Shown: in pieces, positions 88 to 38,776 of the stretch
Numbering within the stretch: the first letter of the stretch is position 1
Layout: the number at the start of each line of letters is the position of its first letter
Assembly (NCBI GenBank): GCA_039630245.1
Contig: JBCNVK010000004.1
Location: 5,403 to 69,402 of the forward strand
DNA from: Bacteroidia bacterium
Lineage (GTDB): Bacteria; Bacteroidota; Bacteroidia; SpSt-205
Length of the DNA stretch: 64,000 bases
Reading direction: 5' to 3'
Program-made: the position numbers and the translations under genes
Notes under the pieces: generated by a model
What the model saw: the letters and a program-made list of their open reading frames with translations, nothing else
What the model was told of the DNA's origin: nothing
The model's database searches: none

Positions 88-3000
88 TTAGGGTCGTACC
101 AGAATAAAAGCCCCCCAGAAATAAGGGGCCGAGCGCTGCTCCCGCATGGCTTTCTGCGTATTCCAGAAGGCTTCCTCTAACGGTAATTTTTTGCGCAGCC
201 ATTCCTGGTAGAAGCGAATCATGAAGTCTCGCGTGGCCTCATCATCCACCTTCCATAGGCTTAGGAGGAGGTTCCGTGCCCCGGCTATGAGGAAGGCACG
301 CTGAAGCCCATAAACGCCTTCGCCATTTTGCACCTCACCGAGGCCAGTTTCACACGCTGAGAGGGCCACAAGTTCGGTATTTTGCAAGCGCAGGGAGATA
401 AGTTCGTAGGCGTTGGCAATTCCATCTCGGCTGACGTCGCTGCTTCCGTGCAGCATAGAGCGCCCCGACTCGGCCAGAAGTAGCGCCGAACGAAAGAGAG
501 GATTAGCCAAAGCACTACTCACCTGAATACCAACCAGCGCGCCGAGACGCTCATCATAAGGCAGGAAAAGCCCATGCGTGGCTATATGTAAAATGTAGGG
601 CGAGGTATATTGGTAGAGAAGCGGTTCGCTCGCCTGCCTTTCCAGATGAATCAGAGGGAGAATCCCTTCGCTGCGCAAAATGTCCTGAATCGCTTTGGCT
701 TCTTCGGCCGTACCAGGGAGGGGCGGTACGTAAACGCTGTCCTCAGGCATATCAGGCGCGAAAGTAGGATTAGCCAGGATGAGGGCCTTTCGCCCCTCCC
801 AGTTCCGAATAGGTGGGGCTGGCCGGAGAAGATTCGCCAGGCGCGTGTGATAGATGACCTGATATTTGTCGGCAAGGTAACCGCCTGTGGGCAGAGGCAA
901 AGTGGAGAGGTTAACCTGATTATAGACCCCATCGGCTGATACAAAGAGCTTTTGCACAGTAGGCGGAAGTACCTCAGCTACAGGAGCCCAAAAAGCCCTA
1001 TAGGAGATAGTGTCTTTTTCAAAGTTCAGTATGGATTGACTGTAGCGGAAAAAGGCGTAGGTTTCCATCCATCGGCCGCGTGGAAAACAGACTACCAGCG
1101 GTTCTTTAGCTTGGCGCGTAGTGATGATGGCATAATACAAAATGGAATCTGGGGCTAGAGGGCTGCGGAGACGCAACCAGTCCACGGCCGCCGCATCCGC
1201 TGGAAGGGCTTGACGAAGCTGCCTCCATTTAGCCTGAAAAAGGCGAATATCCCCGGCATACTGGGCGAGTTGCCTTTCCAGTTCATTCAGGCGGGCTTCC
1301 TCCTCAGCCAGATTAATGCCCATCGTACGCAGTTCCTCTGGGGAATAGGCGTAGAGGCGGGCCACGAATTCCTTTTGCTCCTGCCAGGCGTAGAAAGTAT
1401 GCTGCACCAAGGTATCGGGATGCGAAGCAAAGCGAGCCCGCAATTGAGCCGTCTCATTCAGAATAAAGGCCTTTGTAGCTAGATAGGTTTCATAGGCTTG
1501 TAGGCGGTCCGACTTGGTGCCTTGACTGAAGGCATAGGCGTAGTAGTGCTCCAGTACGCGGCGCACGCGCGCCCAGTAGCGGGCCTTTTCGCTTTCGCTG
1601 AAACCATTGAAGAGCTTATCCACCTGTTTGAGAATGAGAGAAGCGGCCTTTTTGTAGTTAGACTTAGCATCGGCGTAGCTTTGCGCCAGCCAGTGGAGAT
1701 CGGCCAGCTCAGCTAGGTAGAAGGGGTACTCGGGGTGCTGCGTGCCGTGAGCTTTGAGCCAAAGGTCAAGCCATTTACGGTATTCTCGGAGTGCGGTGAG
1801 GTGGTAGCCTTGGGCCCGATACAGGCGGGCTTGATAGAGGAAGGCCCGCAGACGATCTGGATGATACGCTGGCGCATCTACCTCTAAAATAGCGCGGGCG
1901 GCTGCGAGGCGCTCCTCAGCGCGGGCAAGGCTATCCAAGGCTAGCCAAGCCCCGCTCAGGTCCAGCGAAAGCGCCGCATATTCTAAAGGCGCGGAGTTCT
2001 GAGCTAGCTCGGCTATGGACGCACTGCGATGCAGGTGGTGCGTAGCGCTGTCCCGTTTGCCTTGAAGGAGGGCATTTTCGGCTAAAAGATAATGCGTGCG
2101 GGCAAGCGGAAGCGCTGGCTTGCTGCCGTAGAAGCTCTGTTGGGCTTGAAGGGCCTCTTGCAGGTAAGCCGCTTGGCGGTCATACCGGCCTAACGCCGCG
2201 GCGAGGCGTCCCGCCGCTAAAACCGCTTCCACATACCCCAGCGACGTCGGCCCCAAAAGCCGCTTATTGAGGTCCAAAGCCTTGCGAATAGTTTCTTCGG
2301 CCTTCGGGTAATCGCCCATTTCCAAATAGAATTCGCTAAGAGCGCTGTAGTAAGCTGCCGCTTCGGCATCCTCTCGAGCCCCTTGATAGAGCTTAGCCAA
2401 GCGGTTGTAGGTTTCTTTAGCCTGGGTGTAGCGACCAGTTTTCTGGTAGAGTATAGCTAAGCGCAGGAGGCTTAGACCTTCTTCGGTAGTTTCTTTGCTC
2501 TCTCGGCGCTGGAGGCTGCGCAGGCGCGTGGCACGCAGATAGTGACGCTCCGCTTCGCGAAATTGCCCCTTAAGCCGCGCCAAGTCCCCTAAAGCCTCCT
2601 CCAAGGTTATCTTTTCGCTTAGGTACGCATCGGGCAGGTGGCGGATAGGCTTATCTATAGCAAGGAGAAGTGTCTCCGCTGGCGCTGGCAAAAGTAGCGC
2701 TAAAGATACATTAGCCAGGGCTAGCGCCGTACGTAGGTAGGCAGGATTGGTCTGGGGTTTAGGGAGAAGCCGCTCATAGGCCGTCTTTTGGTAAATCAGG
2801 AGCGTTTCGGCCTGGGAGTAGTAGCCGCGGCGCAAGGTGTGCTGCGCCAAAACCTCCCACAGGCTAAAGGTACGCGGGCCTACAGGATCGCCCAGCGCAC
2901 TGAGGAGGCGCCGTACCTGAGCATAGGCCGAATCGGCCTGCTGCGGCCGAAAGAAGGCCAGATATGTCGTGCCCAATTCCGCCAGGCTGAGCGCCTGATC

Positions 3001-4122
3001 CAACGCAGGGGTAGGTAGGAATTCTTCGGCCCGAAGCACGCTCTGGGTAGCGTAGCCTAGAGCGATAGATTGTCGCCCCCTAAGGCGCCCCACCGCCGCT
3101 ACCTGACGCTGAAGCCGAAGAAGTAGAAGGCCCTGAGCCCCTTGAAGGCTAAGGCTTAGAAGATTTTCATATAGATTCTCACGGCGCGTAAGGCGGGTTA
3201 TATAACCCACATGTTCCAGACCTTCAATAGCTGGATAGGTAAGAGGAACCTTCCGGGCTTTATAGGCTCCTATAATAGAATTCATTTTGCGCAGGCGGCG
3301 CTCATAGCTGCGGCGGGAAGCGTGTTGAAACTCATCCAGTAGGAGGCGCGTCCGAGCCCGCAGGGCTAAATCCCGCCCCTTTTGAAAGGTGCGCCGGGCA
3401 AATCGACGGCTCTGGCTAAGGTATTTGCGGGCTTTTTGCCGATCACCCTGAAAGAAGGCCGCTTCCGCCAGTAGGTAGGCGTACTCGGATTGATAGCGGC
3501 GAAGGTGATTACTGGGAGGAAAGGGCGGAAAGGCGGCGGGAAGAGAATCCCAATATCCTCTTTCCCAAGCAAGCCAATACCCGAGGTAGGCAGCGCGAGC
3601 CTTTAGGTAGCCACCGTACGGGGGGGGGAAGCTCTCTAAGCCAGAGGAAGTGTTCAAATAAGTTTGCGCAGCGGACAGCTGGCCTAAGTGAAGGGCGTTT
3701 TCGGCCTGTTCTAAATTCAGCAGGGCTTTTTCCCAGGGCTGTTGGGTGTAGGGCTGAGCTTGGCGCAGCATTTCTTCGGATTCTTTGAGGCGGCCCAGCC
3801 CGCGCAGAATGCGGGCCCGCGTCCAGAAGTAGCGGAGCCGTAGCTCAGGTGTGGCTTCGCCGCGCGGGATGAAGCTAAACTGCTGAAGGAGCGATTCGGC
3901 CAGCGCATACTGATGGGCCTCAGCTAAAGCCAGTGCTTGGGCCACCCCGACCGCCCCATGAGCTTCTTCGGGCCTTAGGCCCTTCTTGAGCAGGCTTTTA
4001 TAAGCTGAAGCCGATTTTTTGGCAAAGGAACCTAGCTTGCCTTGAAAGTAGAGCGGTTCGTTGAGAAATCCTTGGGCGAAAAGGAGACTTAAGCCAAAGG
4101 CTAATCCAAATTTAGCCTTCAC
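88..4122 (-). CDS. Secreted TPR-repeat protein with a C-terminal CHAT (caspase-like) peptidase domain, 1344 aa. GTG start overlaps the rplS 3' end by 11 nt.
   Basis: N-terminal signal peptide [18 protein letters not shown]. Many TPR-like helical repeats follow. The C-terminus has the CHAT His/Cys dyad context (ILHIATHG ... [10 protein letters not shown]). Stop TAA at 88-90. Confidence 0.75.
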
Positions 4123-4471
4123 GACGCTTGAGCTTGAGGGCTTTACCTACCCGACCCCGCATGTAAAAGAGACGGGCTCGACGGGTGCGATTGGGCCGTA
4201 ATACTTCCACCTTCAGAAGAAAAGGAGAATGCAGCGGCACAATCCGTTCTACCCCTATCCCGCCGGATACCTTACGCACGGTTACGGTTTCGCTAATCCC
4301 TCTCCCTCGGCGCTGAATGACCATGCCCTCAAAAACCTGAATGCGTTCCTTGCCGCCTTCCACAATCCGAAGGTGTAGCCGAACCGTATCCCCAGCTCGG
4401 AAGGAGGGTAAATCAGCCTTATGGTAAGGCGCATTTATAAGGTACTCCACCTCCCGCAAAAGATGGCTCAT
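4112..4471 (-). CDS. rplS: 50S ribosomal protein L19
   Basis: The 119-aa translation shows the typical L19 core ([51 protein letters not shown]). Confidence 0.92.
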
Positions 4472-4475
4472 GCCG

Positions 4476-4483
4476 CAAAGGTA
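4476..4483 (-). promoter_or_regulatory. Bacteroidota sigma-A -7 element TACCTTTG, 4 nt upstream of the rplS ATG. It is embedded in a perfect 8-bp/4-nt-loop inverted repeat (4475-4494).
   Basis: Minus-strand read ...TACCTTTGcggcATG. The same motif-plus-spacer architecture recurs at many starts in this window. Confidence 0.6.
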
Positions 4484-4560
4484 TAAACCTTTGCCCTTCC
4501 CTCTGTCTGAAACCGACGGTTGGAATTATTTGACTGAAAGTAGCTATATTTGCCCGTGAT

Positions 4561-5403
4561 ATGAGCCAGACCACTACTTCTACCGTGACTTCTGGGGCAC
4601 CTCAGGTACGCTCAGCGGGTGCCGCCCTTAGAGAATTTTTCGCTACCATTGTAATAATTGTATGTATCACCATTGGCATTCTCATCTATGTTTTCATCTT
4701 GGGTAACCCCAACAATTTTGAGGGGGGCGATCCGCGGAATAACCCTCTACAGGGGAATTACTTAGGTATCGCTTACAAGGGCGGGGTGCTAGTTCCGATT
4801 GCTATAGGGCTTTTGCTTATTGCGATTACTATGTCTATAGAGCGAGCCATCACCCTAGCACGCGCAACAGGCAAGATGAGCATGGAAGCCTTTGTCCAGC
4901 AAATAGAATATCTTCTGGAGTATGACCGAATTGACGATGCGCTGGCCCTGTGCGACAAGCAGCGCGGCACCGTAGGCAACGTAGTGCGCGAAACCTTAGT
5001 GCGCCTCAAGCAGGTAAAAGACGACCCTAAAATGGATCGCGAGCAGAAAGTCGTAAGCATTCAGAAGGCCTTAGAGGAGTCGCTAGCGCTAGAGCTACCT
5101 ATGCTGGAAAAGCACATGACTATCATCGCAACGATTGTATCTATTGCCACTCTTATTGGTCTGATTGGTACGGTATTGGGTATGATTCGGGCCTTTGCGG
5201 CGCTGGCTACCTCGGGCGCACCCGACGCCGTTGCCCTCGCCACAGGGATTTCAGAAGCCTTGGTAAATACCGCGCTGGGCATTACCACTTCCACCATAGC
5301 GACAGTAATGTACAACTACTTTACCAGCCGAATAGATGACATTACTTATCGAATCGACGAAGCCGGTTATATTATCGTGCAGACCTTCCAAGCCAAAAAT
5401 TAG
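4561..5403 (+). CDS. exbB: MotA/TolQ/ExbB proton-channel protein (ExbB) with a long Bacteroidota-type N-terminal extension
   Basis: TM helices are present, and the C-terminal part matches the TolQ/ExbB family (GLIGTVLGMIRAF, ALVNTALGI). It is followed by two exbD genes and tonB. Confidence 0.85.
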   Translation: MSQTTTSTVTSGAPQVRSAGAALREFFATIVIIVCITIGILIYVFILGNPNNFEGGDPRNNPLQGNYLGIAYKGGVLVPIAIGLLLIAITMSIERAITLARATGKMSMEAFVQQIEYLLEYDRIDDALALCDKQRGTVGNVVRETLVRLKQVKDDPKMDREQKVVSIQKALEESLALELPMLEKHMTIIATIVSIATLIGLIGTVLGMIRAFAALATSGAPDAVALATGISEALVNTALGITTSTIATVMYNYFTSRIDDITYRIDEAGYIIVQTFQAKN

Positions 5404-5409: not shown

Positions 5410-6021
5410 ATGAGTAAATTCAAGGCTAAGAAGCAGAATATTGCGATAGACATGACCCCCATGGTGGATTTAGCCTTCTTGCTTATTACTTTCTTCATGC
5501 TTACGGTCAAGTTTCGTGCGCCAGAGGCGGTAGAGGTGGATTTGCCTTCCTCCATAGCCGATACGCCTCTGCCAGCGCAGGATATCCTCATGATTTCGGT
5601 CTCGGGGGATGGTCGGATATTTTTTGGGGTAGATAGCAAGCATGTACGGCTTGGAATTCTAGAGAAGATTAAGGAGCGGTATGGGTATAGCTTCAGTGAG
5701 GAGGAAATGCACCTTTTCTCTATCCTACCGGAAATCGGTGTGCCTTTTGAGCAGCTTAAGGGCTATTTGGCTTTACGGGAAGACGAGCGAAAGGCTATAG
5801 ACAAGCGAGCCTCTATACCCGTAGATAGCACAAATAACCAGCTCAAGCAGTGGATTCTTTTTGCGCGCTATAGCAATCCCAAGCTGCGGATAGTTATCCG
5901 AGCAGATGAACGGGCGCCCTACCCCGTCATCGCCCGCGTGATAGAGACGCTCAAGGAACAGAAGATACACCGATTTAATTTGATTACTACCTTTGAAGCG
6001 CGACCACAAAAAGTCTCTTAG
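5410..6021 (+). CDS. exbD: Biopolymer transport protein ExbD/TolR
   Basis: The N-terminus is DMTPMVDLAFLLITFFM, the ExbD signature. Confidence 0.85.
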   Translation: MSKFKAKKQNIAIDMTPMVDLAFLLITFFMLTVKFRAPEAVEVDLPSSIADTPLPAQDILMISVSGDGRIFFGVDSKHVRLGILEKIKERYGYSFSEEEMHLFSILPEIGVPFEQLKGYLALREDERKAIDKRASIPVDSTNNQLKQWILFARYSNPKLRIVIRADERAPYPVIARVIETLKEQKIHRFNLITTFEARPQKVS

Positions 6022-9601: not shown

Positions 9602-10228
9602 CTACATTTCTTGGAGCGGCTCCGTAGGGGGGAGGAAGGGGGATAGGTTTTCTATGGGCCCGCTGCCCCGCCGCAGAACGCGCAGGGCTCCTAGCCCTTC
9701 GCTCAGGTCTAAGACGGTGGTCTGATTAGGTGGTAGGGGGCCAGCATCGAGAACCTCATCCACCTGAGCCGCATAACTCGCCCACGACTCCAAAGGTACA
9801 CTGGCCGTAACGATAGGACAGCTTAGAGCCTCAAGCAAGGCCTCTACCACTGGATAAGCAGAGACGCGAAAGCCTATGGTTTTTCTATACCAGAGATGAC
9901 GGGGAATAGCTGGCCCAGCACGCAGGATGATGGTATAAGGACCGGGCCACAGCCGCCGCAGTAACCTATAGGTAGGCGTATCTACCCCCAGGGCATAGGT
10001 GCCTATTGCACTTACGCTGGGAAGGAATACGGAAAAGAGGCTTTTGTCGGGGCGTACCCCTTTGATGCGGCAGAGCCGTTCAAAGGCGGCTCTTTGTGAG
10101 ATAAGGCAGCCTATGGCATAGGTCGTATCCGTGGGGTAAAGTACGATTCCACCTCCTTCTAAGGCGCGCTGGGCACGCAGAATAGCGCGCTTGTGGGGTA
10201 TGCCCTCTCTAACCTCCCACCGGGCCAT
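9602..10228 (-). CDS. L-threonylcarbamoyladenylate synthase (Sua5/YwlC/YrdC family)
   Basis: YrdC fold motifs (GGIVLYPTDTTYAIGC; KGVRPDKSL). Confidence 0.8.
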   Translation of the reverse strand: MARWEVREGIPHKRAILRAQRALEGGGIVLYPTDTTYAIGCLISQRAAFERLCRIKGVRPDKSLFSVFLPSVSAIGTYALGVDTPTYRLLRRLWPGPYTIILRAGPAIPRHLWYRKTIGFRVSAYPVVEALLEALSCPIVTASVPLESWASYAAQVDEVLDAGPLPPNQTTVLDLSEGLGALRVLRRGSGPIENLSPFLPPTEPLQEM

Positions 10229-12348: not shown

Positions 12349-12564
12349 TCATTCTTCCTCAAAGAGGAATTCCTCGCGGGAGGGATAGTCAGGCCAAATG
12401 TCTTCCATAGACTCGTAGAGGGTATCGTCATCGGGTAGCTCCCGCAAATTTTCCAGGACTTCTAAGGGCGCGCCGATCCGCTCGGCGTAGTCTATCAGTT
12501 CGTTTCGGGTAGCTGGCCACGGTGCATCCTCCAGATACGAGGCAAGCTCCAGCGTCCAGTACAT
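12349..12564 (-). CDS. Small acidic DUF2795-like protein. Start corrected to the internal Met (MYWTLEL...).
   Basis: About 71 aa from the corrected start. The TATATTTG promoter motif lies 9 nt upstream of this Met on the minus strand. The longer listed ORF would overlap the divergent rhomboid gene. Confidence 0.5.
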   Translation of the reverse strand: MYWTLELASYLEDAPWPATRNELIDYAERIGAPLEVLENLRELPDDDTLYESMEDIWPDYPSREEFLFEEE

Positions 12565-12586
12565 ACCAAAGGCAAATATACAGAAT

Positions 12587-13171
12587 TTGCCTGGGCTGAG
12601 TTGGTATTTTCGCGGCATGGGCCTTACCGAGGGGGTAATAGGCGCCTGTATCCTCCTCTCCTTTTGGGCATGGGCTCAGGAAGAGCCGGACACTTTATGG
12701 ATCAAATGGGGCCTCAGCCCGTATGCCGTATGGGACTATAGCGAATGGTACCGGCTCTTCACCTCCGTATTCTTTCACGACGGAATTCTACATCTTTTGG
12801 TAAATAGCCTCGTATTCTACTCTTTTGGGCGTCCCGTGGAGTTGTATTACGGCTGGAAGGTTTATCTGGCTCTTCTTATTACGGGCGCACTCGCAAGCGG
12901 GCTTCTGACGCTCTGGATGTACAAAAAGGACCCCCGCCACCTCAGCATAGGCCTCTCGGGGGTAGTAAATGCGGTCCTTTTTGCCTATATCCTCAATTAT
13001 CCCTGGGCCACGCTGCTCCTATTTGGTCTTCTACCTCTGCCCGCCTGGGTATTTGCGCTACTTTATGTGGGCTACAGCCTGTATGCGGCCCTTCAGGAGA
13101 GGAGCTTTGTGAATCACTGGGCCCACTTAGGAGGAGCTTTAGGCGGATTGGCCTTTGCCTATCTAGTCTAA
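12587..13171 (+). CDS. Rhomboid family intramembrane serine protease
   Basis: Six TM helices. Catalytic GxSG (GLSGVV) and His (AHLGGALGG) motifs are present. Confidence 0.75.
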   Translation: MPGLSWYFRGMGLTEGVIGACILLSFWAWAQEEPDTLWIKWGLSPYAVWDYSEWYRLFTSVFFHDGILHLLVNSLVFYSFGRPVELYYGWKVYLALLITGALASGLLTLWMYKKDPRHLSIGLSGVVNAVLFAYILNYPWATLLLFGLLPLPAWVFALLYVGYSLYAALQERSFVNHWAHLGGALGGLAFAYLV

Positions 13172-13778: not shown

Positions 13779-13786
13779 TACCTTTG
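13779..13786 (+). promoter_or_regulatory. TACCTTTG -7 element, 4 nt upstream of the valS ATG
   Basis: TTTACCTTTGccttATG. Confidence 0.6.
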
Positions 13787-13790
13787 CCTT

Positions 13791-16400
13791 ATGGAGAAAA
13801 ACTATACGGCCTTGCCGGTGGAAGCTCGCTGGCAAGCCGTGTGGGAAAGTCATAACCTCTACCGAAGCCTTCCCGATAACCGGCCAGCCTACGCTATCGT
13901 TATGCCGCCTCCTAATGTAACCGGCATCCTTCACATAGGCCATGTACTCAACAATACCATCCAGGATGTGCTGGCGCGCTACTACCGCCTCAAGGGCTAC
14001 AACGTCTGCTGGGTACCCGGTACGGATCACGCCTCCATCGCCACCGAAGCTAAGGTAGTAGCTCGCCTGGCGCAGGCGGGCTTAGACAAGCGCCAGCTGG
14101 GCCGAGAAAAGTTTCTGGAAAAAGCCTGGGAATGGACGCATGAGCATGGACAGATCATCGTTACGCAGCTCAAACGCTTGGGCGTGAGCGCCGACTGGAG
14201 CCGCTACCGCTTCACCTTAGACCCGCCTCTCTACCGCGCCGTACTGATGGCTTTCGTGCGCCTCTACCACGATGGGCTAATCTACCGTGGCAAGCGCCTC
14301 ATCCACTGGGACCCTGTAGCCCTCACGGCCCTCTCCGATGAAGAAGTCCTTTACAAAGAGCGCTCGGATAACCTTTACTATGTGCGTTACCCTTTGGAAG
14401 GGGGAGGCTACCTCGTGGTAGCCACCGTACGCCCTGAAACTATCCTTGCGGATGTGGCGGTAGCGGTACATCCAGCCGATGAACGTTACCAAGGCCTTAT
14501 AGGCCGGCGTGTGCGAGTGCCCCTTACAGACCGCTGGGTACCTATTATCGCCGATGAGGCCGTCGATCCAGAATTTGGTACAGGCTGCCTGAAGGTTACC
14601 CCTGCCCATGACCCAAAGGACTATGAAATAGGCCAGCGTCATGGGCTTCCGATTATAGACATTTTCACACCTGAGGCCTACCTCTCTGAGGCAGCGGGTA
14701 GGTATGCGGGCCTTTCCCGTGAAGCCGCACGCACCCGGCTGGTAGAAGACTTAGCTCGGGAGGGCCTGCTGGAGAAAGTAGTCCCCTATACCCACAAAGT
14801 AGGCCATTCCGAGCGTACGGATGCAATTGTAGAGCCGCGCCTTTCCGAGCAGTGGTTTGTACGGATGAAGCCTTTAGCCGAGCTGGCTTTACGCGCTGTG
14901 GAAAAGGGCGAAATCACGCTTGTGCCCGATCGCTTCTTAGGCACTTACCAGCACTGGCTAGAGCATGTGCGCGACTGGTGTATCTCGCGCCAGCTCTGGT
15001 GGGGCCATCGTATCCCGGCTTGGTATGCGCCGGATGGGAAGGTATTCGTGGCGCTTACGGTGGAAGAGGCCCAGGCCCAAGCCCAAGCGGCTGGCTATGA
15101 CCCCACCACTCTTCGCCAAGACGAGGATGTCTTAGATACCTGGTTTTCCTCTTGGCTCTGGCCGCTCAGCGTGTTTGATTTCTTTGAAGACCCCAAAAAC
15201 CCCGATTTCGCCTACTACTATCCCACGCAGGTCCTCGTTACGGCGCCAGAGATCCTCTTCTTCTGGGTAGCGCGCATGATTATGGCGGGGTACTACTTTG
15301 CCGGGAGAAAGCCTTTCTCGGTAGTGTACCTTCACGGAATTGTACGCGATAGGCAGCGCCGCAAAATGAGCAAATCCTTGGGCAATTCGCCTGACCCACT
15401 GGAGCTTATGGACCGCTATGGTACGGATGCCCTACGGCTGGGCATCCTCCTAAGTGCCCCCGCGGGTAATGACCTTCTTTTTGACGAGAGCCTCTGCGAA
15501 CAGGGACGCAACTTCTGCAATAAGCTGTGGAATAGCTTTCGCCTGCTGGCGAGCTGGGGGGAAAAAGGCAGTGAAGACTCCCCCACCCCGCTTCAGCAAA
15601 TGGCTGTTGCTTGGTTTTCGGCGCGCCTGCGCCAGCTTCAGGGTCAGGTAGAGACGCTCTTAGCCAGCTACCGCTTCTATGAAGCGGCTCATGAGCTGTA
15701 CCACGGGATTTGGGAGGACTTTTGCAGCTGGTATTTGGAGGCCCTCAAGCCCGCTCCTCCGAAAAGCCTCTTAGCCGAAGTAGAAGCCCAGGCCCTTCGG
15801 CTTCTCCAGCTTCTTCACCCCTTCGTGCCTTTTATTACGGAGGAGCTATGGCACCAGCGCACGGGTGCACCTCCTGAGGAAAGTATCGGTTTCACCGCCC
15901 TACCCGCAGCCGAGCCGCTAACCCCAGAGGAAACGGCACTCCTTACGCAAGTAGCACACGCTCAGCGCGTAATTTCGCGCCTGCGCGGCCTGCGGCAAAC
16001 CTTTGGGCTCTCGGGCCCGCTTCAGGTAGCCGTGCAAACCCCTTCACCCCAACCGAATGCCCTCGTCGCTGAATGGGCCCACCATTTCCTGCCCATCCAG
16101 AGCTGGACGTATGTGGATAAGCCTCTCCCTCAAGCGCTGCGTTTCGTTCTCCAGCAGGAAGCCTACTACATCCGCCTAGAGGGGACGCCCACCGAATGGA
16201 CTACCCTCCGAGAAAAGCTTCAAAAAGAGCTGGCCCAAGTAGAAAATTTTCTCCGCACAATTGAGGCGAAACTTTCTAATCCGGCCTTCCTCAGCCGGGC
16301 AGCACCCGAAATCGTAGCACGCGAAGAGAAAAAGTATGCCGATGTGCGGGCGCGCCACCAGCTTTTGTTAGAGCAATTAGCCGTAATGGAAAGCCTATGA
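13791..16400 (+). CDS. valS: Valine--tRNA ligase
   Basis: Class-I HIGH (PPPNVTGILHIGH) and KMSKS (KMSKSLGN) motifs. 869 aa with a C-terminal coiled coil. Confidence 0.95.
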   Translation: MEKNYTALPVEARWQAVWESHNLYRSLPDNRPAYAIVMPPPNVTGILHIGHVLNNTIQDVLARYYRLKGYNVCWVPGTDHASIATEAKVVARLAQAGLDKRQLGREKFLEKAWEWTHEHGQIIVTQLKRLGVSADWSRYRFTLDPPLYRAVLMAFVRLYHDGLIYRGKRLIHWDPVALTALSDEEVLYKERSDNLYYVRYPLEGGGYLVVATVRPETILADVAVAVHPADERYQGLIGRRVRVPLTDRWVPIIADEAVDPEFGTGCLKVTPAHDPKDYEIGQRHGLPIIDIFTPEAYLSEAAGRYAGLSREAARTRLVEDLAREGLLEKVVPYTHKVGHSERTDAIVEPRLSEQWFVRMKPLAELALRAVEKGEITLVPDRFLGTYQHWLEHVRDWCISRQLWWGHRIPAWYAPDGKVFVALTVEEAQAQAQAAGYDPTTLRQDEDVLDTWFSSWLWPLSVFDFFEDPKNPDFAYYYPTQVLVTAPEILFFWVARMIMAGYYFAGRKPFSVVYLHGIVRDRQRRKMSKSLGNSPDPLELMDRYGTDALRLGILLSAPAGNDLLFDESLCEQGRNFCNKLWNSFRLLASWGEKGSEDSPTPLQQMAVAWFSARLRQLQGQVETLLASYRFYEAAHELYHGIWEDFCSWYLEALKPAPPKSLLAEVEAQALRLLQLLHPFVPFITEELWHQRTGAPPEESIGFTALPAAEPLTPEETALLTQVAHAQRVISRLRGLRQTFGLSGPLQVAVQTPSPQPNALVAEWAHHFLPIQSWTYVDKPLPQALRFVLQQEAYYIRLEGTPTEWTTLREKLQKELAQVENFLRTIEAKLSNPAFLSRAAPEIVAREEKKYADVRARHQLLLEQLAVMESL

Positions 16401-17629: not shown

Positions 17630-19060
17630 TCAGCGGTCGTCGCGCGTAAAGCCTATCGTCTGGTCATCCCGAAAGATAAACGCCCCTCCGCTGCCAAAGC
17701 GCTGAAAGGCCTCGGTCTCGCCCGTAGCGGCTGCCCGCGCCCGCAAAAGAAAAGCCCGCCAATTCCGATTCTGAAGCTCCCCAATCTTATTGGAGTGAAG
17801 CAGCGGATATTCGCCCGTGATTAGGTCAGGATCGTAGAAAACAAAGATAACCGAGCCCTGCGCCCCAATCTGGTTATACACCCATATTTGGTAGGGGTAT
17901 TTGTCCGGCTCGTTGAAATAGAACTGCATGTCGTTGGGTGGGCCGTACTGAATGAATACCCGTCCGCGGTCGGTACGCCAGCCTGGACGGATAGAGGATT
18001 TGAAATGCTGCCGAGCATACTCAAAACGCTGCCGAAATTCTTGAAAGGAAATGCTACCTGGCCGCGCAGCCCGTTTCTTCCAAAAGGCTACAAAGTAGAC
18101 CTTCTTTTCGGCAAAGCTCTTTAGGGCTTTTTGGAAGCTGCGCTCGGTGGGCGTGGCTAAGTAATAGAGACCTTCTAAATACTCATCCAGCAGCTTTTCG
18201 GGAAAGCCATACTGGGTATCGTATTCGGCCTCGCTGGCTTGGGGCAGAGGCTCTCGGGTAGTGAAAAGGTGGAAACGGCGGTACCAGCTTGCAAGCACTT
18301 CACCCGTATTACGGCACAGCTCTATTTGCGTTAGGTAGATGCCAGAAGGCAGCTGAAGCACAGGAAGGTGAAAGCTAAAAGCCTCAAAGGGTCCAGGTCG
18401 GCGAGGTCGCCGCTGAAAGGTAAAACCCGGTACTTCCAAGCCAGTCTGGGCATCTATTAGACGCAATCGCAGATAGTAGGGCTCGCCGCCCGTCAGGCTA
18501 TCCACTCGGTAGATTTCCCCATATAACCGTAGCGTGTCGGGGTCGGTGAAAAACCCATTAGTTATCCACAGGTCTAAGGTCAGTCCGTGGCGCTCATACC
18601 CTTTAGCGGTGGAAGTCTGCCCCCCGCGCGCATACAGGAGATCGCTGTAGCAAAAGCCAGCTGACTTGGCTGGTACTTCAAACTGCGTAACCGCCTTAAC
18701 CTTCTGCGGACGCGGCTGCTGGTAGGGGTCCAGGCCTTCTACTTCTAAGGTATAGACCCCTTGAGGCAGGCGCAGCCGCCGCACATCCACATACAGCCGC
18801 TGGCGCTCCGGCGCCAGCGTATCTCGCACCGAGGGAAGAACGAAGCGAAATTTATCCGCATACACCGCCTCATCCAGCTGATTCTTGAGAAGGAGGAGAA
18901 AATCTACCTGAGCGCTGTAGCCGTCGCCTTGCGGCACGTAGCGGACGCTTGTAGCATCCACCCCTAAGAAAAGCTCCACATAGGGCTCTCCTTCTAAGGT
19001 AAAGAAGCGCACGGGCTCTATGTAAAAGAGAACCTGAAGCCAGAAGAGGGCCGCTAGCAT
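17630..19060 (-). CDS. GWxTD domain-containing protein
   Basis: Contains GWRTDRGRVFIQYGPPNDMQFY. The N-terminus is hydrophobic. Confidence 0.8.
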   Translation of the reverse strand: MLAALFWLQVLFYIEPVRFFTLEGEPYVELFLGVDATSVRYVPQGDGYSAQVDFLLLLKNQLDEAVYADKFRFVLPSVRDTLAPERQRLYVDVRRLRLPQGVYTLEVEGLDPYQQPRPQKVKAVTQFEVPAKSAGFCYSDLLYARGGQTSTAKGYERHGLTLDLWITNGFFTDPDTLRLYGEIYRVDSLTGGEPYYLRLRLIDAQTGLEVPGFTFQRRPRRPGPFEAFSFHLPVLQLPSGIYLTQIELCRNTGEVLASWYRRFHLFTTREPLPQASEAEYDTQYGFPEKLLDEYLEGLYYLATPTERSFQKALKSFAEKKVYFVAFWKKRAARPGSISFQEFRQRFEYARQHFKSSIRPGWRTDRGRVFIQYGPPNDMQFYFNEPDKYPYQIWVYNQIGAQGSVIFVFYDPDLITGEYPLLHSNKIGELQNRNWRAFLLRARAAATGETEAFQRFGSGGAFIFRDDQTIGFTRDDR

Positions 19061-19073
19061 CTAACAAAGATAC

Positions 19074-19910
19074 CTAACGGTTTGCTTTACGCCACAGCCA
19101 GAAGCCCAAGCCGAAGGTGAGGAGCCATACGCCCAATTCGGCCCAGCTCATAGTCGCACGCCAGCCGAGGAGGGCATGGAAAATTCCTCCCAACCAGCCT
19201 TTATGGTGTAGAAGAGGGTAGTAAAGCCCTTCGTGGAAAGTGTAAGTCCAGGCATGGGCCGCAGGAGGCGTGGAAGTGGGGGGGAAAAGCCTCCAAGCCT
19301 TAGCTTCCTCTAAGGCCTCGGCCCACGCCCAGCGGCTGGAAAGAAGCTCTAAAAGTTCATGGGCGCCGTAGGCGGCCATCCCCGCCGCCATAAGAAGCAG
19401 CAAAACCGAGGTAATACGGAAAAATGGCCGCAGAGGCACGCGCCGACCATAGAGGAAAAGGGAAAGGCCTAACAGTACCGCTACCAAAAGCCCAGCAATC
19501 CCGCCTACCCAGGAGAGACTTTGCTGCATTTGCCATAGGGCGCGCAGGAAAATCGCCGTCTCTAAGCCTTCTCGTAGCACGGCGAAGAGGCTGGTGCCGA
19601 AAAGGAGCCAGCCTTCCGTAACCTGAGCCGCCGTCTGCAGCTCTTGGCGAAGGGTACCACTGCGCCTCTGCATCCACACCACCATGGAAATAAGAAGTAC
19701 CGCCGCACTAAAGGAGAGGGCTATCTCCCACACCACGTGGGCAGAGGCTACTCTATGTAAGACCCAGGCTCCCGCTATACTCAATACGACCGCGCTACCC
19801 ACACCCGCCCATATAAAGCCGCGCAGCGCTGGCGCCGCATACCGAGCTAAGATGCCTACTACAAGCGCCGCCTCCAGCGTCTCGCGAAACGTCACAAACC
19901 CCTCACCCAT
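19074..19910 (-). CDS. FTR1-family high-affinity iron permease (EfeU-like)
   Basis: Two REGLE-type motifs (RETLEAAL; LREGLETAIFL) in a 7-TM protein. Confidence 0.75.
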   Translation of the reverse strand: MGEGFVTFRETLEAALVVGILARYAAPALRGFIWAGVGSAVVLSIAGAWVLHRVASAHVVWEIALSFSAAVLLISMVVWMQRRSGTLRQELQTAAQVTEGWLLFGTSLFAVLREGLETAIFLRALWQMQQSLSWVGGIAGLLVAVLLGLSLFLYGRRVPLRPFFRITSVLLLLMAAGMAAYGAHELLELLSSRWAWAEALEEAKAWRLFPPTSTPPAAHAWTYTFHEGLYYPLLHHKGWLGGIFHALLGWRATMSWAELGVWLLTFGLGFWLWRKANR

Positions 19911-19943
19911 CCAGCAAAGGTAGCTATTTGGAATGAATACAAA

Positions 19944-21992
19944 CTACGGCCTAGGGCCGATACGCTCCAGAAAACGCTCTATCTCTAAAAAGACCTGGTA
20001 GCGATACCCGCCCAGGCCGTGATTCTGGTTGGGGAAGATGCGCCATTCCACGGGGGCATCGGGCTGCGTGCGCCACAGCCGCTCTAAAAAGCGGTAGGTG
20101 TGCTGCACATGCACATTATCGTCAGCCTCGCCATGGATAAGAAGCAGAGGTAGGCGCAAGGACTTATCGGACGGGGGAAGGGCGGTGCGGAGATAGCCCT
20201 CGGGATTAGCGCTAAGAAGGTCCATGAAGCGTTCGGTATAGGCCGTGTCGTAGAGGCGCCAGTCGGTCACGGGAGCTACGGCTATCGCCGCACGCAAGCC
20301 TTCGGGCGCTAGGAAGGCCAGCCGTATCGCTAGGTAGCCGCCATAGCTCCAGCCAAAAGCCACTACCGGCCCGCCGTAAGGCCGGGACGTAAGCCAGCGA
20401 ACAAAGTCGGCCAGCTCCTGAGCTTCCGCCTCACCCAGCCGCCGGTAGGTAGCGAAGCGCTCCGCCGAATAGAGCGCCGTGCCTACCCCATCCATACAGG
20501 CCACCAAAAAGCCCTTTTGGACTAGGTAAGCGTACCAGGCGAGGTAAGTCCCGCCGAAGGCCTCCTTGACCTGCTGCGAACCTGGACCCCCATAAAAAGT
20601 AAGTAGAATTGGATGCGAGCGGGTGGAGTCCCACTGTTCGGGAATTACCAGATAGGCCCAGCGCCGTTTCCCCGCCGAAGTGGTAAACTCCATAAAACGC
20701 ACTTGAATGGGAAGCTTTTGGCGGCGCAGCTCCGCGTTTAGGTCTGGCAGAGGAAGGCGCTGCATGGGCTGCCGAGCGGCGCGCAGCTCCTCCTGCGGCG
20801 GCGTTAGGAAGGTACCATACCGCAAGTGGAGCACTTCCCCCATTAGCTCACCCTCGGCCCAGCCCTCTGGGGGCGTAAGCCACTCTACGCGCCCTTTAGG
20901 GAGATGCAGGTAGCCCACGCGCTGGTCCTTAGGCGTCTGCCCCGCCGCATGAAAGAATACCTTATCCCCCACAAACCCAATTAGGCTTCGCAGGCCGGCT
21001 ACGGTATAGGTGCCTAAGCGCCGGCCCTTATAGTCCAGCCGCCACAGCTCTACGGCCGGGCGTCCCGCCGCCCGATAAATTAGCTCTGGCCTGTCCTCGG
21101 CAAAAACTACAAGCTGCCGGTCATCCCACGAGAAATACCCCACCGTAGAATCAGAGAAAAAGGGGGCTATCCCCTCTTCTGGCGTGTAGCGGTAAAGTAC
21201 AAAGCGATTCTGGGCACGGACCAGATGGGTAAAGTAGAGCGCATCACCCATGGGGCTCCAGCTAAACCACGGTATGTAGCCTCCCGTGGTATCCTGCCAG
21301 AGGTACTCTAAGGTGCGAGTGGGAAGGTGAAGCAGGCATAGGGCCACTTTAGGGTTAGGCTCACCTACGCGCGGGTAGCTGATTTTCTGAAGGGCTGGGT
21401 AACCAGCGCCGTAAAATAGAAGCGGATAAGTAGGCAGCGCAGCCCCGTCTAGGAGCAGGAAGGCCACATAGGTGCCTGAGGGAGAAATCGCAAAGGCCTG
21501 TGTAAAGCTAAATTCCTCTTCGTATAGCCAGTCGGTTGTGCCGGCCTGTTTGGGAGCGGTGTAACGGGTGAGCGTATCCCAGGCTCCTTTGGTTAGGGTG
21601 TAGGCGTAGAGGTTATAGTCGTCGGCGGCGATGAGGGTGGCGCCATCTGGGGTAAAAGCGGCTTCCCGCCAGCGCTGGCCGGGTAAGCGGTAGGTTTGCT
21701 GGCCTTCCTGCCACACCAGCCTACCGGCGCTGGAGTGGCGAAAGCCGCGCTGAAGCTCCTCCCAGAAAAGCCAGCCGCGTCCAGCCGGATGGGGTAGCCA
21801 GCGATAGAGCGGCCGCGATCGGCCCAGCGTTTCCGGCCTGAGATTGGCGCCTACTTTTAGGAGCCAGCCGTCGGGCGCCTGCGCGTACCAGCCCCCCGAT
21901 CCCCGCACCCCCTCCCACTGCGCCGCATGATAGCCATACCGCTGCCAGATGCCTGCCAAATCCAAAACCTGAAGCCACCAGAAGCCCCACAT
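19944..21992 (-). CDS. S9-family serine peptidase (prolyl oligopeptidase/DPP-like) with an N-terminal beta-propeller
   Basis: Catalytic GWSYGGY nucleophile elbow. Asp/His are in the C-terminal alpha/beta-hydrolase domain (IHGEADDNVHVQH). Confidence 0.8.
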   Translation of the reverse strand: MWGFWWLQVLDLAGIWQRYGYHAAQWEGVRGSGGWYAQAPDGWLLKVGANLRPETLGRSRPLYRWLPHPAGRGWLFWEELQRGFRHSSAGRLVWQEGQQTYRLPGQRWREAAFTPDGATLIAADDYNLYAYTLTKGAWDTLTRYTAPKQAGTTDWLYEEEFSFTQAFAISPSGTYVAFLLLDGAALPTYPLLFYGAGYPALQKISYPRVGEPNPKVALCLLHLPTRTLEYLWQDTTGGYIPWFSWSPMGDALYFTHLVRAQNRFVLYRYTPEEGIAPFFSDSTVGYFSWDDRQLVVFAEDRPELIYRAAGRPAVELWRLDYKGRRLGTYTVAGLRSLIGFVGDKVFFHAAGQTPKDQRVGYLHLPKGRVEWLTPPEGWAEGELMGEVLHLRYGTFLTPPQEELRAARQPMQRLPLPDLNAELRRQKLPIQVRFMEFTTSAGKRRWAYLVIPEQWDSTRSHPILLTFYGGPGSQQVKEAFGGTYLAWYAYLVQKGFLVACMDGVGTALYSAERFATYRRLGEAEAQELADFVRWLTSRPYGGPVVAFGWSYGGYLAIRLAFLAPEGLRAAIAVAPVTDWRLYDTAYTERFMDLLSANPEGYLRTALPPSDKSLRLPLLLIHGEADDNVHVQHTYRFLERLWRTQPDAPVEWRIFPNQNHGLGGYRYQVFLEIERFLERIGPRP

Positions 21993-22100
21993 GCTCCAAA
22001 AGTACGGCTCAACCCCCTTTTTCCACAGCTTAAACCAGTTTTCCTAACCAATTCTGCCTACTTTCCTTGGCTGATGCGAAGTAGTTCATACCTTTGCTAA

Positions 22101-24131
22101 ATGCGAGGGATACAGGCGGCTGGGCTATTCTGCATGGGCCTCCTGCTGGCTCAGCAGCATCGTCCCGAGTCCGACTGCAGCGGCGCTATACGAATATGTC
22201 AGGATGTCTATTCCTACCCTGGCGGCATCCCCTCTTACGGCACGGTGCAGGAGATAACTCCAGGAGGTAGAGGCACCTGCCTCACCGGAGGAGAACACCA
22301 GACAGCCTGGTTCATTTTCACCGTCCAGCGGAGTGGGACGATGGGATTTGTTATCTGCCCTGCAGCGGCTTGGGGTGGACGCGACTATGATTTTGCCCTT
22401 TGGGATGTTACCGACCTTCCGAATCCTTGTAGTATCTTTCAGGGCTCGGGCAATCTTTCACTCCTTCCCATCCGGTGTAACTTCTCTGGCGACCAGGGTG
22501 AAACCTCCTGCTGCGGTGGCGTTACCTGTGCCAATCCAGGCCTTACGGGGCTAGATCATACTGATGTGGATCCCGGTCCTATTTCTATTCCCGCAGGTGG
22601 AGACCCCGTCATGCCTGGCCTACCGGTTCAGCGCGGGCGTACCTATCTGCTGCTCGTAGATAACTTCAGCAATAATAATGTCGGCTTCACGATAAGGTTT
22701 TATGGCACGGCGGAGTATATTGACAACCGACCGCCGCAGATGGACAGCGTGCTTTTCACCTGCAGCCCTCTCTATGAGAACCAGCTACCCCTGCTGGAGC
22801 GCTTCCGCGTCCGGTTCAATGAGGTGATAAACCCCACCACGGTAGCCCAAGATGGGAGTGATTTTAGGCTTTTAGAGGAAAGTACGGGTAATGTGATAAC
22901 TTTCACGCGTGCAGTGCCTATCAATCCGCCTCAGACCCGCTTCGTAGACCTTGTACCGGCTCAGCCGCTGCGGCCAGCCCAGCGCTATAAGCTTTTCATA
23001 AGCTATCAGGGACAGAATGCAAGTGATGGAAACACTATCATAGATGGCTGTGGTAATGCCATACCTCCTGGGGGTGGGACTACCGCAGGCGATACCTTAG
23101 AATTTGAGACGCCGGACACGATGGTGGTAGAAGTTACGACGCAGCCGCCGCGCTGCGCGCGCACGGCCACTGGCGTAATCCAAGTAAATGTAGGCGGAAG
23201 CAGTGGGCCGTACGAGTATGCCTTAGTGACAGGGAATAGCGGCGCGCCGCCGGCTACAGGTTGGGGGACTACCGCCAGCTGGAACGACCGTCCCGCGGGC
23301 ACTTACACGATATGGATACGCAATAGGTTTGGTTGCGTCCAGCGTCGCATAGTGGATCTGGCCGATCCCCAGCCCGTGCGCCTTACCGTGGTAGACTCGC
23401 AATATGTAGCCTGTGGCGGTGAGCCTATCGGCTTTGTGCGCAGCCGCGCCGAAGGTGGTGCACCCCCCTACTTCTATGGCCTTTCCTCTGCACCGGGGGA
23501 TACCATCTGGCAGCGCGACAGCCTCTTCCAGAATTTAGGCGCTGGGCAGTATCAGCTTTTTGCGCGCGACCAGTTTGGCTGCCTAAGCCGCCCCTATAGC
23601 TTCCGGGTGGATATTTACCCTTCCGTACGGCTTGTCTCGGTAGATGCGGACTCCGCCTACTGCAATGAAGCGGATGGTCGCCTGCGCGTAGAGGCTACAG
23701 GCGGCGTAGGCGCACCCTATACCTATACCCTGAATGGTATCTCTAATACTACAGGCGACTTTCCTGGTCTAGCCGCTGGCCGCTATCGCATCACTGTCCA
23801 GAGCGGCCCCTGCCAAGGCGATAGCCTCCTTGAAGTAGGACGCTTGCCCTGCATATTTATAAATGTTCCAACTGCCTTTACTCCTAATGGCGACGGAATC
23901 AATGACCAGTGGGTGATTAGGGGACGAGGCATTCAACGCATAGAAGCGACCGTATGGGACCGCTGGGGCAACCAAATCTGGAGTAATAACGGCGAAATGA
24001 CGCGCTTCTGGGATGGCACTACTAAGAGTGGCCAGCCTGTCCCAGAAGGCGTCTATACTTTCATCATACGTGTGGTGGATGTAAGAGGTCAAGAGACGAT
24101 TCGGACGGGCACGGTTACGGTTGTCCGTTAG
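22101..24131 (+). CDS. T9SS type-B C-terminal sorting domain (gliding-motility-associated CTD) surface protein
   Basis: Signal peptide. The C-terminal block is FTPNGDGINDQWVI ... the CHU_C/type-B CTD. Internal Ig/SprB-like repeats are also present. Confidence 0.8.
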   Translation: MRGIQAAGLFCMGLLLAQQHRPESDCSGAIRICQDVYSYPGGIPSYGTVQEITPGGRGTCLTGGEHQTAWFIFTVQRSGTMGFVICPAAAWGGRDYDFALWDVTDLPNPCSIFQGSGNLSLLPIRCNFSGDQGETSCCGGVTCANPGLTGLDHTDVDPGPISIPAGGDPVMPGLPVQRGRTYLLLVDNFSNNNVGFTIRFYGTAEYIDNRPPQMDSVLFTCSPLYENQLPLLERFRVRFNEVINPTTVAQDGSDFRLLEESTGNVITFTRAVPINPPQTRFVDLVPAQPLRPAQRYKLFISYQGQNASDGNTIIDGCGNAIPPGGGTTAGDTLEFETPDTMVVEVTTQPPRCARTATGVIQVNVGGSSGPYEYALVTGNSGAPPATGWGTTASWNDRPAGTYTIWIRNRFGCVQRRIVDLADPQPVRLTVVDSQYVACGGEPIGFVRSRAEGGAPPYFYGLSSAPGDTIWQRDSLFQNLGAGQYQLFARDQFGCLSRPYSFRVDIYPSVRLVSVDADSAYCNEADGRLRVEATGGVGAPYTYTLNGISNTTGDFPGLAAGRYRITVQSGPCQGDSLLEVGRLPCIFINVPTAFTPNGDGINDQWVIRGRGIQRIEATVWDRWGNQIWSNNGEMTRFWDGTTKSGQPVPEGVYTFIIRVVDVRGQETIRTGTVTVVR

Positions 24132-24151
24132 GCTTTCTACCTTTGCGGCCG

Positions 24152-24448
24152 ATGGCAGCACCAGCGAAAAAGAAAAAACGCACGCGCTCGCGCACGGCTC
24201 TAAGACGCCAGCGCAAAAGCGAGCGGCGCCGTCTGCGGAATTTAGCCTGGAAAGCCCGTTATAGGCAAGCCCTGCGAGCCCTGCGGAACGAAACCGACCC
24301 GGCACGCCTTCCCGAACGTCTGCGGGCGGTACATTCCGTTTTAGATCGCCTAGGGCGGCGACGCATCTTCCACCCGAATAAAGTCGGTCGGCTCAAAGCG
24401 CGGCTGGCCCGTTGGGTAGCGGCTCGCCTAAGCGGAAAGCCCTCCTAA
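24152..24448 (+). CDS. Small Arg/Lys-rich basic protein of unknown function (98 aa from the ATG). The listed TTG start at 24143 is unlikely.
   Basis: An exact TACCTTTG promoter motif sits at 24138-24145 with a 6-nt spacer to the ATG. The ORF fills the gap between the flanking genes and ends 3 nt before the POT transporter start. Confidence 0.45.
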   Translation: MAAPAKKKKRTRSRTALRRQRKSERRRLRNLAWKARYRQALRALRNETDPARLPERLRAVHSVLDRLGRRRIFHPNKVGRLKARLARWVAARLSGKPS

Positions 24449-28150: not shown

Positions 28151-28158
28151 TTCTGCAA

Positions 28159-28749
28159 ATGTATCAGTCTAAAGGTATTTCCCTCACCCCGGCTCAGCAA
28201 AAGCTGATAGAGCTTTGGGGCAAGCTGGCCCATGCCTGGGGTGTAGGTCCTACTATGGCTCAGCTGTTTGCCCTTCTCTATGTCTATCCCGAACCTTTGG
28301 ACACCGACACGCTCATAGAAGTGCTCCAGATTAGCCGAGGGAATGTAAGCATAAACCTGCGCAAGCTTCTAGACTGGAAGCTCATTCATAAGATAGATCT
28401 TCCGAGTACACGGCGCGCGCTTTATACAGCCGAACGGGATATTTGGCTAATTGCGACACGGATCATTCAGAGGCGCTTAGAACGGGAAATCACGCCTATC
28501 CAGCATCTTCTCAAAGACCTTTTAGAAAACCAGGCGACTACGCTCGATGCCCACACTACCCATTCCCTCAGCCAGATGCTGGAAGTAGTGGAGGCGATTC
28601 ATTTAGTTACGCAGGTCGCTATACCTGTTCTCGTAACAAATGAACGGCAGCGTGTGGTGAATCTGCTTGCCCACTGGCAGCGCCGTTTCGGAAGAGAAAA
28701 AGGCAGTGGAAATAATACACCAGGACCAAACTCTGGCAGCTCTTTATAA
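28159..28749 (+). CDS. Winged-helix transcriptional regulator (MarR/GbsR-like). Start moved to ATG 28159.
   Basis: wHTH-like segment (MAQLFALLYVYPEPLDTDTLIEVLQISRGNVSINLRKL). The listed 28129 start is a TTG inside the divergent lipoprotein gene. Confidence 0.45.
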   Translation: MYQSKGISLTPAQQKLIELWGKLAHAWGVGPTMAQLFALLYVYPEPLDTDTLIEVLQISRGNVSINLRKLLDWKLIHKIDLPSTRRALYTAERDIWLIATRIIQRRLEREITPIQHLLKDLLENQATTLDAHTTHSLSQMLEVVEAIHLVTQVAIPVLVTNERQRVVNLLAHWQRRFGREKGSGNNTPGPNSGSSL

Positions 28750-30252: not shown

Positions 30253-30266
30253 AGAATAAACTTACG

Positions 30267-38756: not shown

Positions 38757-38776
38757 GCGGGCAAATTTGGCGGCTC

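Follow-up and report, generated by a model that had tools for sequence, protein, structure and literature searches.

The stretch of DNA examined here, 64 kb of the Bacteroidia bacterium contig JBCNVK010000004.1 (the window; 56% GC), carries an octamer, TAnnTTTG (the box), directly upstream of the start codons of many of its genes, among them rplS, exbB, valS, carB, lepA and rpmE. The placement of the window in the Bacteroidota rests on its valyl-tRNA synthetase (ValRS), which is closest to that of Bacteroidia metagenome-assembled genomes (MAGs), and on the presence of CHU_C/SprB domains of the type IX secretion system (T9SS) and a GWxTD domain. The ValRS search returned ten loci from 'Bacteroidia bacterium' MAGs (KatS3mg025/026, SKYB116, SKYB95, SKYG57 and DT_Bin_51 among them) at 66-73% identity and all others at ≤52%, a drop that indicates a deep uncultured lineage. 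The KatS3mg and SKY isolate names presumably denote hot-spring metagenome projects, which concerns the relatives and not the sample from which the window came. Both strands of the window were scanned for the box, and the sample as a whole comprises the window and ∼190 kb from relatives.

All 19 box sites that an earlier note on this DNA had listed are found in the window, each of them upstream of an ATG or GTG that opens a real gene. The listed coordinates hold for 18 of the 19, the box of the DUF2795 gene lying at 12573-12580 and not, 1 nucleotide (nt) off, at 12574-12581, and the spacers are indeed short, measuring 3-8 nt from the G of the motif to the start codon where 3-9 nt had been given. 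Four nt is the commonest spacer (8 of the 19 sites), in line with the recurrent spacing noted before, and TACCTTTG is the sequence of 10 of the 19 boxes. Three near-matches, at the rhomboid, folC and ychF genes, are present as described, and two further ones precede the phosphopantetheinyl transferase (PPT) and endonuclease genes; all five are 5-of-6 matches with a spacer of 4-5 nt. Profile searches confirm the gene names assigned earlier and identify one gene known only as an Arg-rich open reading frame (ORF) as that of ribosomal protein bS20. The boxes and the starts that they adjoin are, in order of position:

4469-4483, minus strand, rplS (L19 by profile): box TACCTTTG at 4476-4483, 4-nt spacer cggc, ATG 4471-4469.
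4545-4563, plus strand, exbB: box TATATTTG at 4545-4552, 8-nt spacer, ATG 4561; predicted leader of ∼4 nt.
12562-12580, minus strand, DUF2795 gene: TATATTTG at 12573-12580, 8-nt spacer, ATG 12564.
12605-12619, plus strand, rhomboid gene: near-match TATTTTCG, 4-nt spacer, ATG 12617.
13779-13793, plus strand, valS: TACCTTTG, 4-nt spacer cctt, ATG 13791.
19058-19072, minus strand, GWxTD gene: TATCTTTG, 4-nt spacer, ATG 19060; 13 nt past the FTR1 stop.
19908-19922, minus strand, FTR1 iron permease gene: TACCTTTG, 4-nt spacer ctgg, ATG 19910.
21990-22004, minus strand, S9 peptidase gene: TACTTTTG, 4-nt spacer, ATG 21992.
22089-22103, plus strand, gene of a T9SS-secreted protein (SprB repeat, CHU_C domain): TACCTTTG, 4-nt spacer, ATG 22101.
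24138-24154, plus strand, bS20 gene (24152-24448; Pfam Ribosomal_S20p): TACCTTTG, 6-nt spacer, ATG 24152.
28148-28163, minus strand, DUF4249 lipoprotein gene: TACATTTG, 5-nt spacer, GTG 28150.
30250-30264, minus strand, non-specific endonuclease gene: near-match TAAGTTTA, 4-nt spacer, ATG 30252.
31563-31577, minus strand, PPT gene: near-match CACTTTTG, 4-nt spacer, ATG 31565.
33118-33210, plus strand, tRNA-His promoter and gene: TACCTTTG at 33118-33125, 9 nt before G-1 (33135); tRNA at 33136-33210.
35931-35945, minus strand, folC: near-match TACCTTCG, 4-nt spacer, GTG 35933.
35955-35969, plus strand, aldehyde dehydrogenase (ALDH, PaaN-like) gene: TACCTTTG, 4-nt spacer tggc, ATG 35967.
38754-38769, minus strand, ychF: near-match CAAATTTG, 5-nt spacer, ATG 38756.
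40642-40658, minus strand, membrane protein gene: TATCTTTG, 6-nt spacer, ATG 40644; the mechanically listed TTG 40653 lies inside the box.
40691-40704, plus strand, AsmA-family gene: TATTTTTG, 3-nt spacer, ATG 40702; the mechanically listed TTG 40696 lies inside the box.
45788-45801, minus strand, lptB: TATTTTTG, 3-nt spacer, ATG 45790.
45825-45839, plus strand, carB: TACCTTTG, 4-nt spacer tagc, GTG 45837, not the upstream ATG 45789.
54957-54975, minus strand, lepA: TATCTTTG, 8-nt spacer, ATG 54959; predicted leader of ∼4 nt.
56066-56081, plus strand, bifunctional nuclease gene (BFN and UVR domains): TACCTTTG, 5-nt spacer, ATG 56079.
57954-57970, plus strand, 54-aa ORF: TACCTTTG, 6-nt spacer, ATG 57968.
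61276-61291, plus strand, rpmE (type B L31; gene 61289-61540): TACCTTTG, abutting the stop of the upstream gene, 5-nt spacer, GTG 61289.

The window holds 52 exact copies of TAnnTTTG where 26.8 ± 4.6 are expected from dinucleotide shuffles (n = 100; shuffle maximum 37), and their position relative to starts is sharply defined. ATGs that open ORFs of at least 50 codons occur 2, 7, 1, 3, 0 and 3 times at offsets 3-8 from the box and ∼0.2 times per offset at 9-40, and counting GTG as well, with a minimum ORF length of 60 codons, yields 19 matches at offsets 3-8, where the rate at offsets 9-45 predicts 4.05 (Poisson P = 6e-8). Across the window and the relatives we collected 67 box-start pairs, with spacers of 4 nt in 32, 5 nt in 11, 6 nt in 10, 3 nt in 6, 8 nt in 6 and 7 nt in 2, such that 88% fall within 3-6 nt. 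The starts in these pairs are ATG in 57 and GTG in 10 (TTG is absent by construction, as the search took ATG and GTG only), and both codons open with a purine, as expected of a transcription start.

The box is the octamer of the Bfr-type promoters of the Bacteroidota housekeeping sigma factor, sigma-A (-7 TAnnTTTG with -33 TTTG; known from Bacteroides fragilis, Flavobacterium johnsoniae, F. psychrophilum and B. thetaiotaomicron). Such promoters go with a Bfr-type RpoD that lacks region 1.1; rpoD lies outside the window. In F. johnsoniae the conserved residues are T-12, A-11, T-8, T-7, T-6 and G-5, transcription starts 4-5 nt past the box, and the refined consensus is TAHHTTTG, in which G is avoided at the two variable positions (PMC6847099); the box of F. 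psychrophilum likewise lies at -12 to -5 (PMC9723704). The two variable positions of our start-adjacent boxes usually read CC or TC, with G in only 5 and 3 of the 67, so the likeness extends to the TAHHTTTG preference and, together with the excess of sites over the shuffled expectation, bears out the earlier identification of the motif as the sigma-A -7 element. Because the G of the box is at -5 in the mapped species, a 4-nt spacer would put +1 on the A of the ATG. This is where the window differs from mapped Bacteroidota, in which a leader of 23-32 nt (median) comes after the box, whereas here about half or more of the heads of transcription units have the box 3-8 nt from the start.

In the window and ten related loci, genes were called blind to the motif, from a coding score and the ATG or GTG lying furthest upstream. 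This gave 166 genes, of which 55 overlap or lie ≤8 nt from an upstream same-strand gene (coupled) and 111 do not (uncoupled). The exact box precedes 43 of the 111 uncoupled genes at the called start and 15 more at an in-frame start ≤40 codons downstream, 58 of 111 in total, and is absent, even as a 5-of-6 match, from all 55 coupled genes. In a control region (codons 60-99) it occurs in 1 of the 166. Same-strand junctions cluster at -4 (13 cases), -1 (9) and 0 to 3 nt (15), with a gap at 4-8 nt, and from a distance of 9 nt upwards the downstream gene usually has a box of its own. The box also precedes two tRNA genes, tRNA-His in the window and a tRNA-Ser(cga) in a relative (L006:7861-7975, minus strand). 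In the latter TACCTTTG is followed by 4 nt (cgat) and then by the mature 5′ end GGAGAG, which lends indirect support to the -12 to -5 placement of the box, and the predicted transcript would have no 5′ leader for RNase P to remove; tRNA-His is unlike it in having 9 nt between the box and G-1. An Rfam scan of the window and three relatives found no structured RNA besides tRNA-His.

This distribution bears on a competing explanation, that the octamer is a signal for translation initiation not of the Shine-Dalgarno (SD) type, such as the 'group B' ribosome-binding site (RBS) of GeneMarkS-2, within leadered mRNAs that start further upstream. Such an RBS would be in keeping with the classification of most Bacteroidetes as having a non-SD motif near their starts (PMC6028130), with the position of 7 of the 19 boxes only 13-33 nt past a same-strand gene, and so possibly on read-through RNA, and with the failure to see a -33 element. 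However, a group B motif would precede internal genes as well (PMC6028130), and the restriction of the box to uncoupled genes and to tRNA genes, which are not translated, instead fits a promoter. The motif matches the mapped -7 box of sigma-A exactly, down to the avoidance of G at its variable positions (PMC6847099), and that these positions vary excludes pairing with one fixed rRNA sequence. Nor is there room for other promoters between divergent genes: folC and ALDH are separated by 33 nt (their -7 boxes by 9 nt), lptB and carB by 46 nt, and the membrane protein (40644) and AsmA genes by 57 nt, and each of these spacers holds just the two back-to-back boxes. Finally, in outgroup Bacteroidota the box nearest to valS lies 9-36 nt upstream of the start, as a promoter would. 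Taken together, the box behaves as a promoter and not as an RBS, and we regard the translation-signal explanation as quite improbable.

The compact divergent pairs have a further consequence in that the DNA upstream of each promoter lies inside the coding sequence of the neighbouring gene, which suggests mutual interference between divergent promoters. An extreme of such compaction is seen at the PPT gene, where the ATG at 31565 (minus strand) and the ATG of an ORF at 31564 (plus strand) share the CATG at 31563-31566, so that the two start codons overlap.

SD sequences were not found. None of the 166 genes, coupled or uncoupled, has an SD 5-mer in the 20 nt upstream of its start, and SD-like 4- and 5-mers are rarer upstream of genes than inside them. 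The earlier note had seen this absence correctly and attributed it to leaderless transcripts; that attribution is right in part but does not carry over to the internal genes, which are not leaderless and lack SD sequences as well. The loss of SD sequences is in fact phylum-wide and extends to Bacteroidota species with leadered mRNAs (PMC6847099, PMC3155529).

A second alternative accepts the boxes as promoters and holds that the adjacent starts are mis-assigned, or that the offset from box to transcription start differs in this lineage, leaving ordinary leaders. The start codons are predictions, the offset is taken from other species and the spacers vary over 3-8 nt, all of which would allow for this. 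The protein profiles argue otherwise. Full-length NCBIfam profiles for valS, lepA, lptB, rpmE and ychF begin, at position 1 or 2, within residues 1-5 of the translation from the box-adjacent start: position 1 of the ValRS profile aligns to residue 1-2, position 2 of LepA to residue 5, position 2 of LptB to residue 3, positions 1-79 of type B L31 to residues 1-79 and positions 1-368 of YchF to residues 1-366. Among Pfam domains, residue 2 aligns to position 1 of DUF2795, residue 3 to position 4 of FTR1 and residue 4 to position 5 of AsmA. Additionally, the N-terminal peptides of ValRS (MESRY...) and L19 (MSHLLRE...) are conserved from the first codon in relatives, and the sharp mode at 4 nt matches the 4-5 nt offset mapped in F. 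johnsoniae (PMC6847099). We therefore consider displaced starts or a displaced transcription start very improbable.

The use of the box to correct starts, as the earlier note had proposed, is supported. The mechanical TTG 'starts' of AsmA, lptB, bS20 and the membrane protein are the TTG within the box itself. For carB, which had been counted with these, the ORF list gives ATG 45789 and not a TTG; position 8-9 of the CarB profile aligns to residue 3 from GTG 45837, which fits GTG 45837 over ATG 45789. Longest-ORF gene finders mis-call starts here (a TTG inside the box, or an upstream ATG as for carB), and start correction and operon prediction in these MAGs could both draw on the box.

The arrangement is conserved at orthologous genes within the lineage. 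In ten of ten members valS is preceded by TA(C/A)CTTTG, 4 nt (5 nt in one) and ATG. Among the window genes only valS and the coupled gene downstream of it are syntenic at these loci, and the other 25 window genes gave no further promoter comparison there. The window's own RplS occurs on a single Logan contig (run SRR28200751). Searching metagenomes with rplS gave an independent second set, of three relatives (L082, L083 and L084) at 77-85% identity. In all three rplS has TACCTTTG, 4 nt and ATG, and the divergent exbB keeps TATATTTG at 7-8 nt from its start. An alignment of the rplS/exbB spacer from the four genomes shows the two boxes and the start codons alone to be conserved while the flanks diverge, and no sigma-70-type promoter is found in this spacer, the sole two weak matches lying inside exbB.

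Outside the lineage the start-adjacent arrangement is nearly absent. Boxes abutting a start number 80 of 185 (43%) in the lineage and 30 of 524 (6%) in other Bacteroidota (odds ratio 12.5, P = 1e-29; the comparison set is 632 kb of loci from other Bacteroidota and Balneolales), and in other members of the Fibrobacterota-Chlorobiota-Bacteroidota (FCB) superphylum and related phyla 7 of 370. Two Chitinophagales MAGs from hot springs, SKYG18 and SKYG5 (L016 and L025:9950-10010; 51-55% GC), have TATTTTTG 9 nt before the valS ATG and, in what is a small sample, a few other short spacers; this may be a partial convergence toward short leaders in other thermophilic Bacteroidota.

A compositional artefact, in which AT-rich octamers merely catch the eye between the genes of a genome with 56% GC, might be expected of a short and degenerate motif and of intergenic DNA more AT-rich than coding DNA, yet it was rejected and has practically no chance of being correct, given that none of 100 shuffles reached 52 copies (twice the shuffled expectation), that the 4-nt peak stands out sharply from neighbouring offsets, that the pattern is kept at orthologous genes with diverging flanks and that it is specific to the lineage.

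We conclude that the octamers are very probably Bfr-type sigma-A -7 boxes, placed so near the start codons that most primary transcripts would be leaderless. The earlier proposal of mostly leaderless transcripts thus finds agreement among the position of the box, the profile-checked starts, the absence of the box at coupled genes and its conservation at valS, rplS and exbB. In this model RNA polymerase would initiate on the first letter (A or G) of the start codon or no more than ∼4 nt from it, and first cistrons would be translated as leaderless mRNAs on which the ribosome recognises a 5′-terminal AUG or GUG. Downstream cistrons would rely on termination-reinitiation where stop and start meet at -4, -1 or 0-3 nt, genes more than ∼8 nt from their upstream neighbour would usually carry their own box and promoter, and an SD sequence would be used nowhere. 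The mRNAs of rplS, valS, lepA, bS20 and rpmE are among those predicted to be leaderless. Both the precise start of transcription, for which we rely on the box being at -12 to -5 in mapped species, and the way in which the transcripts are translated are inferred. Somewhat less firmly, but still with a fair balance of probability in its favour, we suggest that this is a deep Bacteroidia lineage nearly devoid of 5′ untranslated regions (UTRs), in which more than half of the transcription units would start on the start codon from a promoter consisting of little more than a -7 box 4 nt upstream, stop-start reinitiation would serve the remaining genes, and transcription of at least one tRNA would begin at its mature 5′ end.

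Several observations weigh against a leaderless interpretation. The start position is extrapolated from Flavobacterium and Bacteroides, and Bacteroidota ribosomes are not known to translate leaderless mRNA efficiently. Spacers of 7-8 nt, as at exbB, DUF2795 and lepA, imply leaders of 3-4 nt, which is not strictly leaderless, and the seven boxes close behind a same-strand gene are possibly internal promoters superimposed on read-through. The absence of boxes before coupled genes could partly reflect constraints on the coding sequence of the upstream gene. Bfr-type promoters have a -33 TTTG element and none is detectable in this lineage, as in the 67 promoters TTG and TTTG are no more frequent at -40 to -31 (12% and 4%) than in neighbouring windows; this element is weak or not evident in F. 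johnsoniae and weak in B. thetaiotaomicron (PMC6847099, PMC7366714). About a quarter of the uncoupled genes of the window have no recognisable adjacent box, and two genes have one 17-22 nt upstream:

28134-28161, plus strand, MarR-family gene: TATTTTTG 17 nt before ATG 28159; candidate leadered exception with a leader of ∼13 nt.
56058-56090, minus strand, GT2 glycosyltransferase gene: TACCTTTG at 56083-56090, 22 nt before ATG 56060; candidate leadered exception.

Leaderless transcripts have been thought rare in this phylum. 5′ UTRs shorter than 10 nt make up 3.7% in B. thetaiotaomicron (PMC7366714), 5.5% of transcripts are leaderless in F. psychrophilum (PMC9723704), and in F. johnsoniae leaders exceed 10 nt in 87% and are ≤10 nt in ∼13%, the authors rejecting leaderlessness as the reason for the missing SD sequences (PMC6847099). 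Of the Bacteroidetes/Chlorobi, 90% were assigned to group B by GeneMarkS-2 (PMC6028130), and just 1 of 37 genomes from these phyla had leaderless genes, at 2.4%, in an earlier survey (PMC3160421). Genomes rich in leaderless genes are well known from Actinobacteria, Deinococcus-Thermus and Archaea (PMC6028130, PMC3160421), and in the open-access literature that we searched we found no report of a leaderless-dominant Bacteroidota lineage.

The closest known architecture is the 'group C' of GeneMarkS-2 (Actinobacteria and Deinococcus-Thermus, for example Mycobacterium tuberculosis and Deinococcus deserti), where a promoter box also lies at a fixed short distance from the starts of first genes, is absent before internal genes and serves a large share of transcription units (a share predicted at 25-50%, with D. 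deserti at 167 of 262; PMC6028130). In group C, however, the box is of the Pribnow type, TANNNT, 6-8 nt from the start, and SD sequences are kept on leadered and internal genes, whereas in the present lineage the 8-nt Bacteroidota box lies 4 nt from the start and internal genes have no SD. The archaeal 'group D' (Haloferax, Saccharolobus) resembles the lineage in its dominant leaderless first cistrons, few or absent SD sequences and tight stop-start coupling downstream, and differs in its TATA/BRE promoter ∼26 nt upstream and in its transcription and translation machinery. Within the phylum, F. johnsoniae shares initiation without SD sequences and does so on leadered mRNAs, using A-rich 'Kozak-like' positions, with its anti-SD sequestered by bS21, bS18 and bS6. 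That mechanism needs an unstructured A-rich leader, whereas most first cistrons here are predicted to have no leader. The architecture proposed here is the known leaderless one, built with the Bacteroidota -7 box at 4-nt spacing.

If the leaderless interpretation is correct, no leaderless-dominant lineage would have been reported from the FCB superphylum before this one, and nature would have provided a system in which to study initiation on a bare 5′-AUG by Bacteroidota ribosomes, with their sequestered anti-SD. To start translation without SD pairing, this lineage appears to use the leaderless route. The contrast within one phylum between A-rich leadered initiation and leaderless initiation would offer a case for how and why leaders are lost, for which high GC content, thermophily and genome compaction are speculative candidate reasons.

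Some further copies of the box and some neighbouring genes deserve mention. Exact TACCTTTG also occurs inside coding regions, at 5988-5995, 58551-58558 and 60007-60014 (all plus strand) and at 9791-9798 (minus strand). The copy at 5988, with 29 nt between it and the start of exbD2, could act as an internal promoter of a leadered transcript; the copies at 58551, 60007 and 9791 have no obvious start downstream. The box of the GT2 gene lies within the first codons (ATG GCA AAG GTA) of the divergent BFN gene, and TACCTTTG is thereby present on both strands of 56066-56090 as an inverted repeat with a 9-nt gap. The product of rpmE is the type B, zinc-independent form of L31.

No Pfam family matches the basic 54-aa ORF at 57968-58132 (plus strand; MARKPDKR...), the stop of which overlaps the ATG of the next gene at 58129 (ATGA); it may be a real small protein heading a four-gene operon. 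Finally, a 1344-aa TPR/CHAT-domain protein is encoded at 88-4122 on the minus strand, starting with GTG 4122. Its coding sequence and the end of rplS, stop included, share 11 nt, and no box precedes it. The gene thus appears to be co-transcribed with that of L19, and its product appears to be an unusual operon partner for this ribosomal protein.

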